A stretch of DNA of 64,000 nt. Source: Staphylococcus phage Machias. Location: sequence record MW349128.1; one strand, 5' to 3'. This document shows positions 20,474 through 55,280 of this stretch, piece after piece. The translations under genes and the position numbers were made by a program. Position 1 is the first letter of the stretch; each line of letters opens with the position of its first letter. Under the pieces are notes generated by a model. The model made no database searches. It saw only the letters and a list, made by a program, of their open reading frames with translations, and had not been told where the DNA came from.

Positions 20474-21300
20474 CTTTCTTTTTCTAAATTATAGTTGTAC
20501 TGAATTTCTTGTTCAGTAAGCACTCTATCGTAAATTTTCATTGAATAGAGTTCATGTTCAAATCTTCTATAATAAGCTGTAGCATCTCCTTGACCTAAAA
20601 ATACTTTAAAATCTGTTTCTTGAGAAGTTGTAATTGTAATATCATTTAAAGGTTTCTCATCCTTTTTTACCCCATTTACATATAATGTAATTTTGTCGTT
20701 TTTATCAACTGTAGATACTAGATGAAATTCATCGCCATATTTATATCCTTCTGATTTACTAAATGAATAGGTACTTCTACCACCTTCAGCTCCATAGTAA
20801 GTAGAAGCAGAAATACTATATTCCTCAGAAGAAACTATATTATTGTCCTTTATAAACTGTAACCAAAATCTACCATATGTTTTACTGGTCATAAAAATTT
20901 CAGATCCTTTTTCTATAAGTTTATCTGACATTTTTAGTGTCATTTCAACTGAAAATTTTTGACCATTGTTAATTTTCTTCATATCTAACTGACTTACCGT
21001 TCCGTCAGGGTGTTTTGCCATAGGTATAATTCTATCATCAATACCATCAAATTTTAATCCTTTATTATAACCACTTTCAGAGTTATATAGGAAATTAAAA
21101 TGTTGTGCGTTTTCAGTAGATCTTCCAGTTAGGTCTTTGGTAACACCTTTATTAGTATCAATATTTTTCATACCATTAAAATCATACCATAAAACTAATC
21201 CATCTTTAATTGGGTTAGGGTATATTAATTTACTACCTTGATAAACAAAAGATATGGGATTATTGCCTAATCTAATTGTATTCATAATTATAACCCCCAT
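20461..21300 (-). CDS. LamG/concanavalin-like domain protein (paralog B)
   Basis: YPNPIKDGLVLWYDF...KFDGIDDRI... shared with the adjacent paralog (21288..22028). Confidence 0.5.
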   Translation of the reverse strand: MGVIIMNTIRLGNNPISFVYQGSKLIYPNPIKDGLVLWYDFNGMKNIDTNKGVTKDLTGRSTENAQHFNFLYNSESGYNKGLKFDGIDDRIIPMAKHPDGTVSQLDMKKINNGQKFSVEMTLKMSDKLIEKGSEIFMTSKTYGRFWLQFIKDNNIVSSEEYSISASTYYGAEGGRSTYSFSKSEGYKYGDEFHLVSTVDKNDKITLYVNGVKKDEKPLNDITITTSQETDFKVFLGQGDATAYYRRFEHELYSMKIYDRVLTEQEIQYNYNLEKERWNL

Positions 21301-37387: not shown

Positions 37388-37434
37388 AAGCGTAATATAT
37401 TGAAATATAAACATATATTATAATAATGAAGAAA

Positions 37435-37504
37435 GTTTATCTAGCTCAGTTGGTAGAGCAATGATTTTCATCATGTGTCCGGGGTTCGATCCCTCGGATA
37501 AGCT
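37435..37504 (+). tRNA. tRNA-like gene with a 4-nt anticodon loop (probable tRNA pseudogene/degenerate tRNA)
   Basis: Acceptor GTTTATC/GATAAGC, D arm GCTC-AGTTGGTA-GAGC, T arm CGGGG-TTCGATC-CCTCG, variable GTGTC. The anticodon stem ATGAT/ATCAT encloses only TTTC. Confidence 0.35.
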
Positions 37505-37857
37505 TTTTTTGGTCTAAAATTCTTATTTATTAAAAAATTTTATTTAAAAATATTAATTAACTATATAGTATAAATCTATAATGATCCTCGTCAAATTATT
37601 ATAGATTTTTTTTTTAGTTTTTGATTTAACTAAAAAATATAATAGATTAAATTCTATTATAACTTACTTTGTCGTTTGTTGTTGCTTTAAAAATGTTCCT
37701 TTGATTTCTTGTTTCTATTTTTAATATGTCATGGTTTTAAATAGAAATCCATACGCCTCCTTACGTATAATTAAAAATGAATAGATATTATTATATATTT
37801 ATTTACTTAAAAGAGTGCATAGATGATAAATGTACTCTTTTATTTTTTTTTTATTAA

Positions 37858-37929
37858 TGCTCTATAATTCAATGGTAGAATGCTTGACTGTTAATCAAGA
37901 GGTTGTTTGTTCGAATCAAACTAGAGCAG
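37858..37929 (+). tRNA. tRNA-Asn (anticodon GTT)
   Basis: Acceptor TGCTCTA/TAGAGCA (7/7), TA at positions 8-9, D arm ATTC-AATGGTA-GAAT, anticodon arm CTTGA-CTGTTAA-TCAAG, variable AGGTT, T arm GTTTG-TTCGAAT-CAAAC, discriminator G. Preceded by a terminator-like hairpin plus T-run. Confidence 0.8.
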
Positions 37930-37936
37930 TTTCTAT

Positions 37937-38039
37937 GTTCCTATAGCTCAATGGTCAGAGCGTACGGATTTCATGAATTATACCTGGATAGGATAATTTA
38001 TGGATCTGTAGGTTATGAGTTCGAATCTCATTAGGAACA
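37937..38039 (+). tRNA. tRNA-like gene (103 nt) with canonical acceptor/D/T arms and a 38-nt anticodon loop; reads as tRNA-Glu(TTC) carrying a 31-nt insertion at the canonical 37/38 intron position
   Basis: Acceptor GTTCCTA/TAGGAAC, D arm GCTC-AATGGTCA-GAGC, T arm ATGAG-TTCGAAT-CTCAT, anticodon stem TACGG/CTGTA (one G-U). The loop ATTTCA + 31 nt + T contains its own AATTAT/ATAATT hairpin. Confidence 0.4.
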
Positions 38040-38554
38040 ACCCTATAGGATTAATCATCCTTATAGCTTGGCTGCAGACTTGCTATAAATAAAATATAAA
38101 TTGAGTGATATGCCAAACTTAATTTATTAGATTCAACTAAAGTTAAGGCATATCTTTAGTTGTAAAAAAAATAGCACATATATTTAATCTGTCAAATTAA
38201 ATATATGTATCACAACAATCATTACAGTTTTAGGTCTAATTTACGTTTAGTTATTAGATCGGAGTATTAAAGAGGACTTATTTTACATTAATTTGTGATA
38301 AGTATCTGACTTTAATACATTTTAGGTTTTCTAGTTTCTTAGTCCCTAATATAAGAAAAACTAGACTATTAAATCGCTACAAGATTCCTAATATGTTCCA
38401 TGCATATATTGGTTTCTTTAATCCTTCTTATGCTTTATGGGATATAAAAAATTATTAAAGCAACTTTATACTTTTTTCGTAAAAGTAACTATAACCCTAA
38501 CCTACAGATTGATTCCAAATTAGTCGAAGAGGTTAGGGTTATTTTATACATATT

Positions 38555-38584
38555 TCCCAATATCTAATTTAATAGATATTGGGA
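38555..38584 (+). terminator. terminator, conserved hairpin family (TCCCAATATCT...AGATATTGGGA)
   Basis: 11-bp stem plus T-run after the tRNA region; a preceding AACCCTAACCT/AGGTTAGGGTT hairpin lies at about 38472..38527. Confidence 0.5.
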
Positions 38585-38600
38585 TTATTTTTATTTTACG

Positions 38601-38620
38601 TTTTAAATATATATTATAAA
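38601..38620 (+). promoter_or_regulatory. early-type promoter-like motif TTTTAAATATATATTATAAA
   Basis: 54 nt upstream of the 38674 start. Confidence 0.45.
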
Positions 38621-38673
38621 TTTGAGATTATTAAAATATAATCTTAATATTATAATATGGAGATGAATGCGAT

Positions 38674-49872: not shown

Positions 49873-50862
49873 TTATAAAAATCTTAATCTATATTTATTT
49901 TGTGATCCGTCTTCACTTCTTGATCCCATCGCAATATAAGGATTACCTGTATTAATAGGATACATTTCATCGTATTTAAGTTTAACACCCATTGTTACTG
50001 CATTTATATTAGCTCTTATAGGAGAAGCACCTGAAGCATTTGTAACTGAACTTCCCATTGTTGATACTGTATTAAAATCAACTAAAGTATCTGGATTCAT
50101 ATCTTCTTTATACGAATAAGCAAAGTTAACTGATACATGTGGAACGTCTACATCTTCACCAACATTTTGAGAAAAAATATCATATGGTACATTAATAGGG
50201 AAACATCCTGTGTATTTAGAATAATGTAAAACAGTTTCTCCATCAAAATCTAGTAAGAAATAATAAATAGAACTAGTATAATCTATATATCTTTTACTTT
50301 TCGCATCGTCTGAAGGATACATGTAACCTCTAGTAACACCTTCAATATATTCGCTCCAAGCTTTTATTAAATGTATAATATCTATATTTTTATTTTCTTC
50401 AAAGTCAACAGCAATTTCCCCACCAGCAATTGAATTAACTGTTCCTACCGGTAAGTGTTGTTTATATCCGTAGAATGTTTCATGGAATTCTTTCATTGTA
50501 GTTTGTGTATCAGGTATAGATATACCCATAAATCTATTTGAAAGGATTGGAATAAAAGGTTTACCTGAACTTATAGCATTTAAATTACTAAAATTTAAAG
50601 TTTCTAATAATTTTGGTTTAACACTTTTAAGATATGAAAAGAAACTATCTCTATTTATATTACCATCTACTAAATTTAAACGAGGAGCAGTAAAGAAAAT
50701 ATAAGGTAATCCTTTATTAAATATTTCTGAATTTTTATCCTTCATTCTATAAGGGTTAAAGGATTCTATTTCTTTTACATTACCTTCTTTTTTAAGTTCT
50801 TCCTTAAAAGAAGTTTCTAAGCTTTTATCATCTTCAGCCAATCTTTCTTCACCACCATTCAT
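49873..50862 (-). CDS. hypothetical protein (329 aa)
   Basis: ORF only. Confidence 0.5.
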   Translation of the reverse strand: MNGGEERLAEDDKSLETSFKEELKKEGNVKEIESFNPYRMKDKNSEIFNKGLPYIFFTAPRLNLVDGNINRDSFFSYLKSVKPKLLETLNFSNLNAISSGKPFIPILSNRFMGISIPDTQTTMKEFHETFYGYKQHLPVGTVNSIAGGEIAVDFEENKNIDIIHLIKAWSEYIEGVTRGYMYPSDDAKSKRYIDYTSSIYYFLLDFDGETVLHYSKYTGCFPINVPYDIFSQNVGEDVDVPHVSVNFAYSYKEDMNPDTLVDFNTVSTMGSSVTNASGASPIRANINAVTMGVKLKYDEMYPINTGNPYIAMGSRSEDGSQNKYRLRFL

Positions 50863-50916
50863 TTTCTTAAAATTTTAATAAGTACATGTTAAAGCACATT
50901 TATTATTTTAATTTAA

Positions 50917-50943
50917 TTTTTAAATTTATATTATAATAATGGA
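50917..50943 (+). promoter_or_regulatory. early-type promoter-like motif TTTTAAATTTATATTATAATAATGG upstream of a non-coding region
   Basis: Close variant of the recurring 20-mer. Confidence 0.35.
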
Positions 50944-50945
50944 AG

Positions 50946-51560
50946 AGAGAATGTCATCTTTCTTCGCTCTTATAACTAGTCTATAAATATGCCTGACTCT
51001 TTAATTCACCCTTATAATTAAAGAGCAGAAGGTCTGGGACCTCCCAGTTATCGAATAGGAAATAAATGCTAATTGTAGACAAAATGAGTTAAATAAAAAA
51101 GATTATTAATTAAAATCAAAAAGTCGTACTGTTATATTTGGGTGTATTGATCTTATTATAAGATTAATATAGTCTACACATATTTATAAGATAGCGTAAG
51201 AGATATGCTGCTCGTATAGGGGAATAAAAATAAATGACATTAGAAGAAATAATAAAGAAGGAAGAAAATTATAAAAAAGAAAATATATATCAAGATAATG
51301 GCAAAAGAAATAAAGAAAAGTGTATGAATTTAAATGATTTCATTTTAAATGAAGTGTTGTATACACCAAAAATATAGAAACTCAGTAATTAATAAAAATA
51401 GAAATAAATTTAATGAACGGAACTGTATCGGAAAACAGGAAAGTAGTCATATACGTATTTTATCGCTTCTAGTATATGGCAGGCGAAAGCCTAAAGCGAT
51501 AACCTTCTTAAATATAACAGTACTTAAAAAACAACTCATTTCATATTATGATAATCATTG
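50946..51560 (+). ncRNA. candidate structured non-coding RNA region (about 600 nt), function unknown
   Basis: No credible ORF (51349..51573 is C/H/R/K-rich junk; the 47-codon ORF at 51234..51377 is very K/E-biased). Several strong hairpins (CTCTTTAATT/AATTAAAGAG; CTGGG-ACCT-CCCAG; TATCGCTT...AAGCGATA enclosing a GNRA-capped AGGC-GAAA-GCCT). Promoter-like motif upstream, terminator downstream. Confidence 0.3.
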
Positions 51561-51605
51561 TCGATCTCTTTAATTAGAGATCGATGATGGTTATTTTTTT
51601 TTTAC
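51561..51605 (+). terminator. rho-independent terminator TCGATCTCT/AGAGATCGA plus T-run
   Basis: 9-bp perfect stem followed by TTATTTTTTTTTTACTTTTTTT. Confidence 0.55.
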
Positions 51606-51671
51606 TTTTTTTACTAAAAATCATCATCAAACATAATTTTATAAAAATCTTAATAAAAATAAGGAAAGGCA

Positions 51672-53219
51672 GTGAAAGTTTTGGTTAAAAAATTAAATAT
51701 ACTTTCAGATGTTATTGATTTACTTAAGGATTCCACTACAGGTAATGTAAAAAATAACTATAAAAATAACAGTAGACGTAAAAGACCATTCGATAGAACA
51801 CTAAGAGGAAAAGCTGGAGATTTTATTTTACAATTTCCATTAGTGACTTCTGATGCTTTAGATAATGATACTGTAGAATTAATGAGAAATCAATTAGAAT
51901 TAGAAAGAGCATATGAATTTGAATATATTTTAACAAATACTCCAATTCAAGAATATAATCCAAAAGATCCAAATTCATTTATGGGAGACTTACATCAAAA
52001 TATTAATTTTAATGAAAGTACTAAGCAAGATATTAAACGTGTTAATGATTATTTAACTGAGTCACCAGACGAAAAATTTAATAAAACTTCAATTAATGAT
52101 ATGTCAATTACTAAAGAAGAAATGGATTTATTAAATGAAGAAACAATTGATTTTGAGGATTCAAGAAAGATTAAAGGTTATATTGAATTTGACGTTAAAG
52201 AATTCTTAAAGGCTAATAATCCTGATACTAAGGATACTTATACTGCAACAGTATATATAATTAAACCGAATTCTAACGGTGAACAACTGGAATTTTTATT
52301 TAATAATTTGAAAGAGGTTAAATATAGAGGTGGAGAAGATAATTCAAGATCGTTATATGATATCTTGAAAACATCAAGTAATGAAGGAACTTTATCTGAT
52401 AATGGTATGAAATTCTTATATGGTTCTATGGAAATTGCTGAAGCATTTAGTTCATATATTAAAAATATTATAGGAGTAAAACCTGATATACAAACGAATC
52501 AATATGATAATTATGGAACTACTACTACAATTCAAAAAGATAAATTAAATTCATCTATACCAACTATGGTTAATACGAATGTTACTTTCTTAATTACAGA
52601 TTCTAAAGGTGAACCAGTTTCAGGAATTAATCATCCTAGTAAACCAGTTAAATTTGGTGTAAAAACTGTAGTACATCCTGTTAAAACAGAAGATGTAGTA
52701 TTCTATTTATCTGATAAATCTAGAAAATCTAATCTTGTAACTAAATTAGTTAAATTTACTACAGGTGAATTAAGATTATTTAGAGATTTATTATTAGATA
52801 CAGAAAGAACTAAGAAAATTGCTAGAGATTCTAAAAAAGGACGTACAGGTGCTATTTGGAATAAATTAAATTCTATTTATACTGTAGATAGAGCTGGTAG
52901 TATTACTAGATCTAAATCCGGAAATTATATTCCTACAACAGCTTTAATGATTAGCATTGATGAAACTCAAGAAGTTAAACGTAAAACTGGCGTTGATTTA
53001 TTAAATGATAGACGTGCTGTAGATAAAGTTTATAAAGAATTCTTCTTATTAGAATTTATTGTAATTGATGAAGCTAGAGAATTGGTTTACAAATATCTTC
53101 CAGAACATCGCAAATTTGAAATTATAAAACAAAATAAATTAGGTGCTTTGAAAGTAAGCAGTGATAGTAAAAAAGGTGACATTGATTCTAAAGATTTAGC
53201 TAAATTATTAAAACGATAA
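51672..53219 (+). CDS. hypothetical protein (515 aa), GTG start
   Basis: RBS AAGGAAAGG; no motifs. Confidence 0.5.
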   Translation: MKVLVKKLNILSDVIDLLKDSTTGNVKNNYKNNSRRKRPFDRTLRGKAGDFILQFPLVTSDALDNDTVELMRNQLELERAYEFEYILTNTPIQEYNPKDPNSFMGDLHQNINFNESTKQDIKRVNDYLTESPDEKFNKTSINDMSITKEEMDLLNEETIDFEDSRKIKGYIEFDVKEFLKANNPDTKDTYTATVYIIKPNSNGEQLEFLFNNLKEVKYRGGEDNSRSLYDILKTSSNEGTLSDNGMKFLYGSMEIAEAFSSYIKNIIGVKPDIQTNQYDNYGTTTTIQKDKLNSSIPTMVNTNVTFLITDSKGEPVSGINHPSKPVKFGVKTVVHPVKTEDVVFYLSDKSRKSNLVTKLVKFTTGELRLFRDLLLDTERTKKIARDSKKGRTGAIWNKLNSIYTVDRAGSITRSKSGNYIPTTALMISIDETQEVKRKTGVDLLNDRRAVDKVYKEFFLLEFIVIDEARELVYKYLPEHRKFEIIKQNKLGALKVSSDSKKGDIDSKDLAKLLKR

Positions 53220-53360
53220 TTTAGAAACTTTTAGTTATAATGTATATATAAAATCTTAAGATGAAGAAAATTAAGGTTTATTTAATTTAAACATTTATTT
53301 ATAAAATATAAAATTAGAAAAATTATATTAGCGTGTAGTGATTCTATATTTTTATTTTAT

Positions 53361-54449
53361 TTGTATATTAACTCTAGAAAGGAAGTGGAATTCTCTGTGG
53401 AACTTGAACGTAAACATCTTTTAAATGAAGATGCAATGTCTCAAAAAGTTTTACAGGAATTCTCTTTACCCTTCAGACCTTTTAAACGTTTATCACCTGA
53501 AGAGCAAGTGGAAGCTCTTGGTTTAAGCGTAGCTAAAATGTCTGATAAACTGTTGAAAAAATCTGGAAATAAAAACTTAAAATCAATTCTTTCTAGTAAG
53601 GGTGATTTTAAGAAAATCAAAGCGTATAAAGATTTTGAGAAAACTTTTAATTACATAAAAGCTCAAAAATCTAAAGGCTTTGACAAAACACTTATTTTCG
53701 CTTTTGACACTATTGAGAATTCTGTAAAATTGCTTGAAAAAGAAAAACAAAATTTTAAAAAATGTTTTACAAATGATAATGAAGTAGGTCAATTGACTTA
53801 TACAACTATAGCTGCTTCTGTTATGTCAGCTACAGTACAACTTTTCTTCTTAGGATTTGAAAAAGATCTTAATGGAAATTTAAAATTCACTGATAAAAAA
53901 TTAAGTAAAAAAGATTCAATAGAGCTTAAAACTTTAGATAATCTTTTAAAAACATATAAAGCTGGAAAACTAAAAGAAATTTTTAAAATTGATGGCTCAT
54001 TTGTTTCTACAAATGAAGAATTTGATTTTAAAAAACTTGCAGACGATGCTAGTGAAGCATATAAAGATGGTGCTTTAGGAACTATCATGAATAAATTAAA
54101 ATCATTAAATAAAGGAACTAAAGTGGCTGCAGGTGGAATACTTGTTATTGCCTTAGCTCCAATGGTATTATTAATGATTAAACAAGCTTATATTTATTTT
54201 ATTAAAAAACGTTCAGATTTTGCTGAATATTTACGTGATGCTGTTAGTATTATTGAAGGTGAAAAAGATAATGATATTAGTGATTCAGCACGTAAGAAAC
54301 AGGAAAAAATGGCTGAAAGATTAAATAAATTAGCTGATAAAATAGATATTGAAGATGGTGTAGCTGAAGTTCAGTCTAGATCAGAATCAGAATCTATTGA
54401 CGTTGAAATTGGAAAAGAATTAGAAAATGATTTTAATATTAGATTCTAA
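53361..54449 (+). CDS. hypothetical protein with one TM segment (AGGILVIALAPMVLLMI)
   Basis: ORF plus hydrophobic segment. Confidence 0.45.
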   Translation: MYINSRKEVEFSVELERKHLLNEDAMSQKVLQEFSLPFRPFKRLSPEEQVEALGLSVAKMSDKLLKKSGNKNLKSILSSKGDFKKIKAYKDFEKTFNYIKAQKSKGFDKTLIFAFDTIENSVKLLEKEKQNFKKCFTNDNEVGQLTYTTIAASVMSATVQLFFLGFEKDLNGNLKFTDKKLSKKDSIELKTLDNLLKTYKAGKLKEIFKIDGSFVSTNEEFDFKKLADDASEAYKDGALGTIMNKLKSLNKGTKVAAGGILVIALAPMVLLMIKQAYIYFIKKRSDFAEYLRDAVSIIEGEKDNDISDSARKKQEKMAERLNKLADKIDIEDGVAEVQSRSESESIDVEIGKELENDFNIRF

Positions 54450-54488
54450 ATATTAAAATAAATTAAAAATAAATGGAGGAAAAATATA

Positions 54489-55280
54489 ATGTTGCAAAAT
54501 CAATCATTTGAAATGTCTTTCTTACAAGAAGAACTTTCTGCATCTCAAACAGAACTTTTTGTTTTAGAAAGTGTTAATGCTTTAAACGAAGCTGATGAAG
54601 AAGAAAAAGGAGCTTCAAAAGCAGGAGAACTTGCTAAGAAAGCTAAAGATTTCTTTATTAAAATTGCTAAAGCTGTTGCAGAAGCATTTAAAAAATTCAC
54701 TACTTTCTTTGTAGAAATGTATAAAAAATTAGAATCTCGTGTAGTTAACGTTCAAAAATATATTAGTGGAGTTAAATCTAGTGCTAAATTAAGTGAAGCT
54801 AGAGAATATTCTTTATTAGCTCCAAGTGCTTTGAAAAACTTACAAGAATTAGCTAAAGCTGATAGTCCTAATTTTGATCGTGGATTTGAACGTGCTAAGT
54901 CTGGTCTTAATGATGAGAAAAATATTGTAAAAGGTTCAATTAAAACAATCTCTGAAGCTGATAAGGCTGCTAAATCTGCTGCCGGTTCAGTTAAACAAGT
55001 TAAGGCTGCAGCTAGCGTAGTTTCTCAAACTAATAAATCTGCTCAACAAGCTGCTAAAGATGGTGTATCTGCTTCTGCTAAAGGAGATAAAGAAGCTATT
55101 AATGAGAAAAAACGTGTAGCATCTAATGCTAGTAAAGCTAACTCATTATCTCGTACAGCTGTATCTAAATCAATTAAACTTTCTAACCAAACTTTAGCTA
55201 CTGCATTTTCTGCTGCTAAAGCTATCAATGCTGCTGGGAAAAAAAGTGATAAAAAAGCACCTAAACCAGCAAATGCATAA
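54489..55280 (+). CDS. Ala/Lys-rich protein, paralog family member (with the 26669, 55486 and 56114 ORFs)
   Basis: N-terminal FEMSFLQEELSA...AKKAKDFFIKIAKAVAEAFKKFTTFFVEMYKK matches the 56114..56935 product. Confidence 0.5.
   Translation: MLQNQSFEMSFLQEELSASQTELFVLESVNALNEADEEEKGASKAGELAKKAKDFFIKIAKAVAEAFKKFTTFFVEMYKKLESRVVNVQKYISGVKSSAKLSEAREYSLLAPSALKNLQELAKADSPNFDRGFERAKSGLNDEKNIVKGSIKTISEADKAAKSAAGSVKQVKAAASVVSQTNKSAQQAAKDGVSASAKGDKEAINEKKRVASNASKANSLSRTAVSKSIKLSNQTLATAFSAAKAINAAGKKSDKKAPKPANA

Follow-up and report, generated by a model that had tools for sequence, protein, structure and literature searches.

The window analyzed here is the whole 64,000-nucleotide (nt) stretch of DNA from Staphylococcus phage Machias in the sequence record MW349128.1, and its subject is a 663-nt early transcription unit (50941-51603, plus strand) located between two virion genes. 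The unit is best described as a messenger RNA (mRNA) with exceptionally long, structured and mutually pairing untranslated regions (UTRs), and not as a large ornate non-coding RNA (ncRNA). It carries a small gene for a protein of 47 amino acids (aa). The unit and its structure are real, and the structure is conserved among related phages. The best explanation, considered to have about an even chance of being correct, is that a small early gene is controlled in cis by its own long UTRs, which pair with each other, at the level of translation or RNA stability.

The window phage and its kin are relatives of Bacillus phage AR9/PBS1 and are presumed to have uracil-DNA. They encode two multisubunit RNA polymerases, virion and non-virion. 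The AR9 early promoter consensus, AAATATATATTAT-(6N)-G+1, was obtained by differential RNA sequencing (dRNA-seq) and primer extension, and it is used by the injected virion polymerase. The window sequence AAATTTATATTAT-AATAAT-G matches this consensus at 12 of 13 positions and at the +1 G, and the relatives match it perfectly. The predicted transcription start is G50941. At the other end there is an intrinsic terminator; in phage AH12, the stem sequence of the terminator is wholly replaced and a stem of 21 base pairs (bp) is retained, which is a wholesale compensatory replacement. The length of 663 nt is given by these two motifs. The sequence-only reading had proposed a unit of ~650 nt running from an early-type promoter to a strong terminator, and this holds at 50922-51603, with the AR9-type promoter and a 20-bp stem followed by T10. 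There are seven consensus early promoters in the window. The other six have leaders of 19-67 nt before genes of 380-734 aa, and the 293-nt leader before 47 codons is 4-15 times longer than those leaders.

The small gene at 51234-51377 is a credible protein-coding gene, whose sequence comparison indicates fast evolution under purifying selection. The relatives compared were the phages AH12, Madawaska, MarsHill, UFV_DC4, S6, LY01, SA1 and PALS_2 and three metagenomic contigs. An open frame of 43-52 codons follows the same GGGGA in every relative (10/10 sequences). DNA identity in the open reading frame (ORF) between the window and AH12 goes down to 61%, and the frame is nonetheless kept. All insertions and deletions (indels) in the ORF among the relatives are multiples of three. 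The proportions of non-synonymous and synonymous differences (pN/pS) are 0.25/0.68 between the window and AH12, 0.02/0.19 between S6 and LY01, and 0.18/0.25 between Madawaska and SA1. The C-terminal motif [DN]F..[ND]E.[IL]L is common to both clades of sequences, that of the window and AH12 and that of Madawaska. By estimate, chance alone would make about every tenth codon a stop at 20% G+C; thus, the retention of the frame in several diverged lineages would be strong evidence for a gene. The sequence-only reading saw no credible ORF in the unit, which is not correct for 51234-51377, given its GGGGA, conserved frame, pN lower than pS and in-frame indels. Its judgment that the ORFs are implausible is right for the 74-aa frame at 51349-51573 and the others; these are regarded as spurious, and their frames are not conserved outside a near-identical block.

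The 47-aa peptide is identical to CPT_Machias_184, and the ORF is also annotated in AH12 and in the Staphylococcus jumbo phage vB_StaM_PB50 (PB50), which is 99.6% identical to the window over the unit region. The annotations at this locus are "hypothetical protein" only, and in AR9 there is none, despite an experimentally mapped early start. The peptide is rich in K, E and N, strongly hydrophilic and charged, and has no hydrophobic or membrane segment. Searches against Pfam and PHROG found no significant family. AlphaFold predicted a single long helix (predicted local distance difference test score, pLDDT, 80), which is uninformative. The amino-acid-coding part occupies 141 of 663 nt (21%); the other 79% is non-coding, with UTRs of 293 and 226 nt.

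The minimum free energy (MFE) of the plus strand is -145.7 kcal/mol, compared with -111.4 +/- 6.6 kcal/mol for 150 dinucleotide shuffles (z = -5.2, 0/150). The fold of the minus strand has z = -3.4. Multiple stable hairpins had been claimed from the sequence, and all four named stems are present. The stem CTCTTTAATT/AATTAAAGAG is at 50997-51006/51016-51025, CTGGG/CCCAG at 51034-38/51043-47, and TATCGCTT/AAGCGATA at 51463-70/51494-501 around AGGC-GAAA-GCCT. The fourth, GATTAATATAGTCTAC, is composed of the 3' arm of a 13-bp hairpin and the 3' arm of helix H3.

The flanking structural genes of the window and AH12 are 97-99% identical; therefore, high identity of the non-coding block between these two is alone uninformative. 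The informative comparison is with the Madawaska clade, in which blastn sees the terminator region only and an anchor-based alignment is clearly homologous. A structure-aware alignment from helix Pa to boxA' (Table 1) was made by hand, with N-padding and with the ORF replaced by NNNN, and MAFFT left it unchanged. It was used because the 3'UTR boxes of the two clades were not aligned correctly when MAFFT was run on the full units. Pairs were counted in 10 distinct sequences from two clades, the window/AH12-type and the Madawaska-type, and a count in seven sequences agrees. In this comparative alignment, of the kind to which the sequence-only reading had looked for covariation, 98.1% of cells at 63 proposed pairs are standard pairs, in comparison with 31-51% when the 3' partners are slid by 1-3 columns. 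Compensatory double changes are seen at 12 pairs (shuffle mean 7.0), a number reached by 0/500 shuffles. The covariation score is 0.239 versus 0.140 in the control, again with 0/500 shuffles. Frequent G-U/A-U exchanges fit the plus-strand RNA only.

Two checks are independent of the hand-made alignment: folds of each phage and RNAalifold on a plain MAFFT alignment. In the single-sequence folds, boxA and boxB are in the MFE structures of the window, AH12, LY01 and SA1, with probabilities (P) of 0.56-0.98. RNAalifold on the plain MAFFT alignment of five Madawaska-clade units recovered H1, H2, boxA and boxB. The same consensus also has the terminator, a hairpin that covers the UUG start codon, and GGGGAG/CUUCUC in direct continuation of boxB'.

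One long-range element of the structure is a two-part duplex between the 5'UTR and the 3'UTR. BoxB is a 14-nt perfect inverted repeat whose arms are 370 nt apart, which was reached in 3/200 shuffles. In the 10 sequences, boxB/B' has 15 pair columns that are 100% paired, with two double changes and five one-sided G-U/A-U changes, and a 1-nt indel is compensated on both arms. BoxA/A' has 10 pair columns, 95% paired, with two double changes. The second long-range element closes the 5' domain. In H3, two adjacent pairs are swapped on both sides between the clades (AG/CU to GA/UC), giving UGUAGAC/GUCUACA in one and UGUGAAC/GUUCACA in the other, and there are further G-U variants. Pa is 100% paired in the 10 sequences; its variation consists of two one-sided changes (U-A/U-G), and double changes are absent. 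It is present in the MFE structures of Madawaska and MarsHill.

Table 1. Features of the early unit and of its immediate surroundings in the window.
Feature	Position	Strand	Remarks
Early (virion RNA polymerase) promoter, AAATTTATATTAT-N6-G	50922..50941	+	AR9 consensus match; same place in all relatives
H1, 5'-terminal hairpin GAAGAGAGA/UCUUUCUUC, loop AUGUCA	50942..50965	+	P 0.98
Pa, 5' arm UAUAAAUAUG	50982..50991	+	Pairs with 51179-51188 (CAUAUUUAUA), 10 bp
H2, hairpin with conserved C-rich apical loop CACCCUUAU	50997..51025	+	11 pair columns, 6 double changes
Hairpin CUGGG-ACCU-CCCAG, clade-specific	51034..51047	+	P 0.96
H3, 5' arm UGUAGAC	51074..51080	+	Pairs with 51172-51178 (GUCUACA), 7 bp, 100% paired
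boxA, 5' arm AAAUGAGUU(A)	51082..51091	+	Pairs with 3'UTR 51532-51541; P 0.94
V1, small hairpin closed by invariant GAUU/AAUC	51101..51117	+	4 invariant pairs
boxB, 5' arm GUACUGUUAUAUUU(GGG)	51126..51142	+	Pairs with 3'UTR 51507-51523; P 0.98
V2, 13-bp hairpin UGUAUUGAUCUUA/UAAGAUUAAUAUA	51143..51171	+	P 0.98
H3 3' arm (51172-78) and Pa 3' arm (51179-88), one 17-nt strand	51172..51188	+	Closes 5' domain
Ribosome-binding site AGGGGA	51218..51223	+	10 nt upstream of ATG; GGGGA invariant 10/10
Small gene, 47 aa, MTLEEIIKKEENYKKENIYQDNGKRNKEKCMNLNDFILNEVLYTPKI	51234..51377	+	Conserved frame, ribosome-binding site, pN<pS
Clade-specific 3'UTR block	51400..51502	+	Hairpins CUGU/ACAG (51423-38) and UAUCGCUU...AAGCGAUA around AGGC-GAAA-GCCU (51463-51501)
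Pyrimidine tract CUUCUU (CUUCUC in other clade), candidate anti-Shine-Dalgarno element	51504..51509	+	Directly 5' of boxB'
boxB', 3' arm AAAUAUAACAGUAC	51510..51523	+	Partner of boxB
boxA', 3' arm (C)AACUCAUUU	51532..51541	+	Partner of boxA
Intrinsic terminator, 20-bp stem (51550-51569/51576-51595), 6-nt loop, U10	51550..51603	+	P 0.98
Late-promoter motif AACA-N6-TA of the 515-aa virion gene, outside the unit	51630..51641	+	Kept in relatives

The 5' domain (50982-51188) is closed by Pa and H3, and the 5' arms of boxA and boxB lie inside it and pair out to 51507-51541. Since these arms are inside the Pa/H3 domain and their partners are outside, the two sets of helices cross, and they must either combine into a pseudoknot or alternate. 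Constrained ensembles favor the long-range fold by 0.5-9.7 kcal/mol in six phages and disfavor it by 2.2 kcal/mol in Madawaska. Pa/H3 is in the MFE structures of Madawaska, MarsHill and UFV_DC4, with pair probabilities of only about 0.05 in UFV_DC4. The 3' partners are transcribed ~370 nt later, so the 5' domain would form first.

Masking of the Shine-Dalgarno sequence (SD) in cis is plausible from the modeled pairings, and there are two candidate elements. One is the apical loop of H2, (A/U)CCC(C)U(U)AUA, which is conserved in both clades while the stem covaries; the loop in the relatives is UACCCUAUA or AUCCCCUAUA. The RNA of the Madawaska clade has no other run of at least three C (almost no other in SA1) and hardly any run of at least three G besides the SD. 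In all seven phages, the loop finds its best intramolecular partner in the SD region, at -9.6 to -9.7 kcal/mol. The other is the CUUCU(C/U) tract. In the RNAalifold fold of the Madawaska clade, CUUCUC/GGGGAG is on the same strand as boxB and is able to pair once boxB forms. The helix has six pair columns with no double change, and it is weak in the window clade, with three G-U pairs. A pairing of the H2 loop with the GGG after boxB was also considered; it holds in the window and AH12, breaks down in the Madawaska clade and was rejected. The helix GAUUACC/GGUGGUU, seen in the MFE structure of Madawaska, was rejected as well, as it is broken in SA1.

Under the preferred reading, the virion-borne phage RNA polymerase would make the 663-nt monocistronic early mRNA right after infection, and this mRNA encodes the fast-evolving 47-aa helical protein. 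Its UTR architecture consists of the 5'-terminal hairpin, the hairpin with the UCCC-type C-rich loop, and the 5' domain closed by the 17-bp Pa+H3. The two-part duplex of ~25 bp (boxA/A' and boxB/B') from the 5'UTR to the 3'UTR places the ribosome-binding site (RBS) and the gene in a closed loop. GGGGA would then be masked in cis by the C-rich loop ~200 nt upstream, by the CUUCU(C/U) tract, which the boxB duplex would bring next to the RBS, or by both. The 5'-3' closure, together with the hairpins at the ends, may shield the RNA from host RNases (J1 and Y) or may create an RNase III site. We infer that masking and shielding together would set the timing and the amount of the small protein.

Several points weigh against this reading. 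With only two clades, each double change amounts to roughly a single event in evolution, and the main alignment had been adjusted manually to the structure. BoxA and boxB cross Pa/H3, and thus no simple fold can accommodate all of the helices. Compensatory changes are absent from the SD-masking pairs, which are invariant or rich in G-U. In nested-fold ensembles, the burial of the SD differs little between the two folds. G-rich RBSs are also present at other phage genes; GGGG-type sites in the window are found, for example, near 21297, 23233 and 35641 on the minus strand.

RNAIII of S. aureus and the small RNAs with UCCC motifs carry C-rich loops complementary to G-rich RBSs. A dual-function or mainly regulatory RNA of this kind, in which the UCCC-type loop acts in trans on G-rich RBSs of the host or the phage and the ORF is secondary, is judged unlikely. 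The C-rich apical loop kept in both clades on a covarying stem, the structured non-coding 79% of the RNA, the closure of domains by long-range helices, the embedded small ORF and the GGGG-type RBSs at several other genes of the window phage are all consistent with it. The best partner found for the loop is nevertheless the RBS of the RNA itself, the candidate trans targets are sequence matches in the window only, and only a single C-rich loop is common to both clades. Moreover, purifying selection on the ORF means that the RNA serves at least in part as an mRNA. A more elaborate form, in which a bistable or pseudoknotted early regulator of 0.66 kb, made by the injected polymerase, silences G-rich RBSs in trans through its UCCC loop, a switch from the closed 5' domain to the 5'-3' closure times the release of its own protein, and AR9-like phages of Bacillus and Listeria have retained analogous orphan early RNAs at the same locus, is considered rather improbable. 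The unit could instead be an ordinary small early gene, whose UTR structure serves RNA stability only, without control of translation: protection from RNase J1 would come from the 5' hairpin, protection from 3' exonucleases from the terminator, and protection from RNase Y from the 5'-3' duplex, as it does in hbs of B. subtilis. That mRNA is a precedent, 5'-terminal hairpins are present at other early starts such as the second early unit of Madawaska, and SD accessibility is little different between the modeled folds. This simpler explanation is also judged unlikely, as it leaves unexplained both the conserved C-rich loop opposite a G-rich SD and the CUUCUC-SD helix in the consensus fold, and leaders of 19-67 nt suffice for six other early genes.

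Two further alternatives have much less in their favor. The mRNAs of hok-type type I toxins fold back from 5' to 3' around a small ORF. The long-range 5'-3' pairing, the possibly masked SD, the small ORF and the two competing folds, nearly isoenergetic in one clade, resemble such a type I toxin-antitoxin module, whose mRNA would be kept inert by the fold-back. It is very improbable here: the peptide is hydrophilic and charged, has no membrane segment and is predicted to be a soluble-type helix, no antisense RNA gene is evident (the sole promoter-like match on the minus strand is within the AT-rich early promoter), and virion genes, not neighbors of the PADLOC type, are on both sides. A DNA-level feature, such as repeats of a mobile element or a signal for recombination or packaging, could be suspected from the inverted repeats flanking the ORF and from the extra early cassettes that relatives carry in this gap, a hot spot. 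Its helices are, however, kept through G-U pairs, which are A-C mismatches on the other strand, the plus strand folds better than the minus strand, and the unit is single-copy in the window, PB50 and AH12. Membership in a known ornate RNA or intron family meets with no Rfam match at E<=10, no interrupted gene and a retron-type reverse transcriptase (RT) at least 16 genes away. This last pair of possibilities is largely refuted and is given hardly any weight.

The closest known systems are two Firmicute host mRNAs. In icaR of S. aureus, initiation is blocked by base pairing of the SD with a UCCCCUG motif in the 3'UTR, and an RNase III site arises from this pairing (Ruiz de los Mozos et al. 2013, PMC3868564). 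The unit is similar in the host genus, Staphylococcus, in its computed 5'UTR-3'UTR pairing (boxA/A' and boxB/B', 25 columns, 95-100% paired, four double changes), in the UCCCC-type C-rich motif opposite the RBS, and in a duplex long enough to be a candidate RNase III substrate. In contrast to icaR, the C-rich motif of the unit is in a hairpin loop of the 5'UTR, and not in the 3'UTR. The main duplex (~25 bp) lies beside the SD and not on it, and the SD-adjacent element of the 3'UTR is CUUCU(C/U). There is no sequence similarity, the product is a 47-aa phage protein, and the unit is known from sequence alone. In hbs of B. subtilis, a 14-bp interaction between the 5'UTR and the 3'UTR modulates cleavage by RNase Y (Braun et al. 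2017, PMC5737220). Both are Firmicute mRNAs with a small ORF, a strong SD, a highly structured 5'UTR and a long-range 5'/3'UTR helix (~14 bp) just upstream of the terminator. The duplex of the unit differs in being two-part (10 + 15 bp), with a much longer leader; the unit is phage-encoded and transcribed by a phage RNA polymerase, and an RNase Y site is known in hbs only. Unlike in both host mRNAs, a 5' domain crosses the UTR-UTR duplex in the unit. It would thus be intramolecular control between UTRs with a layout of its own, in a setting where this is unusual. Pairing between 5'UTR and 3'UTR as a control principle has so far been described in a few Firmicute host mRNAs (icaR and hbs), and the unit would be its first phage case. 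Few jumbo phages with uracil-DNA and RNA polymerases of their own have been sampled, and, to our knowledge, no post-transcriptional control has been described for this group.

The similarity to RNAIII consists in a size of ~0.5-0.66 kb, many hairpins, long-range closure of domains, an embedded gene for a small peptide, and a C-rich apical loop complementary to G-rich RBSs. The differences are that the unit has one conserved C-rich loop and no sequence or Rfam similarity to RNAIII, and that it is an early phage RNA, whereas RNAIII is a quorum-sensing RNA. With hok, the unit has in common the 5'-3' fold-back that encloses a small ORF and the possibility of competing folds; it differs in its hydrophilic peptide, in that an antisense RNA is not evident, and in its location in a structural-gene region of a lytic phage.

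The unit occupies a gap of 809 bp (50863-51671) between divergent genes, a 329-aa virion structural gene on the minus strand and a 515-aa gene on the plus strand (start 51672). The latter is a homologue of AR9 g214, a "minor virion structural protein", and its late-promoter motif matches the AR9 late consensus AACA-(6N)-TA/G. In AR9, dRNA-seq mapped an early transcription start site (TSS) at 181724, 340 nt upstream of g214 (Table S2 of Lavysh et al. 2017, PMC5312081). The expression of g214 is 0.69 at 5 min and 1427 at 40 min, and the gene has its own late start at 182012 (PMC5312081). Since g214 is silent early and has its own late start, this spot of AR9 gives rise to an orphan early RNA of ~250 nt. 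This RNA (KU878088 181724-181976; L010 3882->3630, minus strand of the locus) is unannotated. It contains a 15-codon ORF, MFKALRTVLSIIGLQ, behind GGAGG, with a predicted 13-bp long-range helix around the ORF (P 0.98). The AR9 transcript resembles the unit in its two virion gene neighbors, its promoter class, its end before the late gene, and the tiny conserved ORF enclosed by a predicted 13-bp long-range helix; it differs in its length (~250 versus 663 nt) and in its 15-aa hydrophobic peptide, unrelated to the 47-aa protein. BpSp has a corresponding orphan early unit (L015 about 2890->2640, minus strand of the locus) with the peptide MFKLVRIIVSLING. Between BpSp and AR9, the peptide gene shows AGA/CGU (Arg) and UCA/AGU (Ser) codon swaps, and these synonymous swaps point to selection on the peptide. 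A C-rich loop of the AR9 RNA, AACCACCU, is complementary to AGGUGGUU just before the U-tract, and the corresponding pairing between loop and 3' end in BpSp, AACCGCCUU/AAGGCGGUU, covaries with it (A-U to G-C).

The Listeria phage LPJP1 has a 469-nt early-promoter-to-terminator unit at the same syntenic position (L009 3914->3446, minus strand of the locus). It has no credible ORF, as only TTG frames of 25 and 15 codons without an SD are present, and a true non-coding early RNA may be more likely here than in the window unit. In the Yersinia phage phiR1-37, the gap is only 150 bp. No sequence homology of the Staphylococcus unit to the AR9, BpSp, LPJP1 and phiR1-37 loci was detected by nhmmer with profiles of the leader and the 3' region. 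The syntenic early-promoter-to-terminator units in AR9, BpSp and LPJP1 imply that a small early RNA or micro-protein may be a conserved part of the infection programme.

Several elements of the unit differ between the clades. At +1, the Madawaska clade differs in sequence and likewise forms a 10-bp hairpin (GAGAAGUUAA/UUAACUUCUC); protection of the 5' end by H1 would be expected by analogy with Firmicute 5' stabilizers. The H1 loop of the window clade, AUGUCAU (50952-50958), is perfectly complementary to the start-codon region AUGACAU (51234-51240). In the other clade, there is a GAAA loop in the H1 position, and the UUG start is inside a local hairpin, AUUCAA/UUGAAU. On the minus strand, a sigma-70-like match, ATGACA-16-TATAAT (11/12), runs from 50957 to 50930 in the direction of the 329-aa virion gene. 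This match lies across the early promoter and H1, and the AT-rich early motif probably accounts for it. The CUGGG hairpin is held by a 44-nt insertion (about 51029-51072) absent from the Madawaska clade, and it is identical in the window and AH12 and thus gives no covariation information. The inner stem of V1 is UGAC/GUCA or AUCGA/UCGAU in the relatives. V2 is variable, with 10 bp in AH12, and is absent in the other clade. The 3'UTR block at 51400..51502 is present only in the window, PB50, AH12 and the Logan contigs and is absent from the Madawaska clade; in PB50, GAAA is changed to GAAC. Special constraint on the 3' block 51420-51530 was considered and rejected, because its near-identity equals the baseline divergence of the flanking genes.

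There is no second copy of the unit in the window by nhmmer with profiles of the leader and the 3' region, and the unit is also single-copy in PB50 and AH12. In a phage collection, blastn of sub-regions matched PB50 and AH12 only, and the remaining matches were chance 20-mers. The pattern TATAAATATGCC..TGAGTTAA gave four matches in viral contigs, all by chance and in coding DNA, and a longer sequence pattern gave no match in metagenome and genome contigs. With the 329-aa neighbor as a protein query, no relatives were found in viral contigs. These negative scans are consistent with under-sampling of uracil-DNA phages. Short metagenomic contigs (L017-L022; Logan ERR13865871-75 and ENA ERZ27252336) carry variants of the whole unit, one AH12-like and two Madawaska-like. 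Uracil-DNA phages of this group are rare yet present in public read sets.

In Madawaska (L003 1443-2448), and likewise in L004-L008, the same gap contains a second early cassette upstream of the unit. One to three small genes make up the coding part of this extra cassette of the Madawaska clade, which comes with a consensus early promoter of its own, a 5'-terminal hairpin and a terminator. The gap between the virion genes is a hot spot for early "morons". Between the window and AH12 (L002), identity is 51-88% in the 515-aa virion gene and beyond (51672-54600) and 97-99% leftward. A drop of identity between the two indicates a mosaic or recombination boundary near 50990-51000.

The known RNA families proposed by the sequence-only reading did not fit. 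At gathering thresholds, a search of the whole window against Rfam found no family at the unit. At E<=10, the region 50700-51800 gave no GOLLD (RF01998), ROOL (RF03087), intron, RNase P or tmRNA, and the weak matches were terminator-like hairpins. A decayed intron is without basis, since no gene is interrupted: both flanking genes are complete, divergent and have full-length homologues. The idea of a large structured ncRNA is thus valid in part; the unit is mostly non-coding, has conserved structure and belongs to no described family, and it carries a conserved gene. A retron msr-msd ncRNA was also rejected, as the neighbors are virion genes and the RT (MarsHill gp206) has its own 1.2-kb non-coding region at least 16 genes away.

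Proximity to tRNA genes had been hinted at, and these are 13 kb away. Rfam places tRNA-like genes at 37434-38039 (37435-37504, 37858-37929 and a 103-nt match at 37937-38039), in a gap of ~1.3 kb without a long ORF (37388-38673). ARAGORN made two calls in the same region, one with an undetermined anticodon, which fits the "pseudo-tRNA" remark for Machias. Elsewhere in the window, the motif (T/A)AGGT(A/T)TTGGGGA(A/T) is present on both strands at three convergent gene ends (15728/15751, 40894/40915 and 45803/45826), with a T-run after the plus-strand copy. These motifs look like a family of bidirectional terminators.

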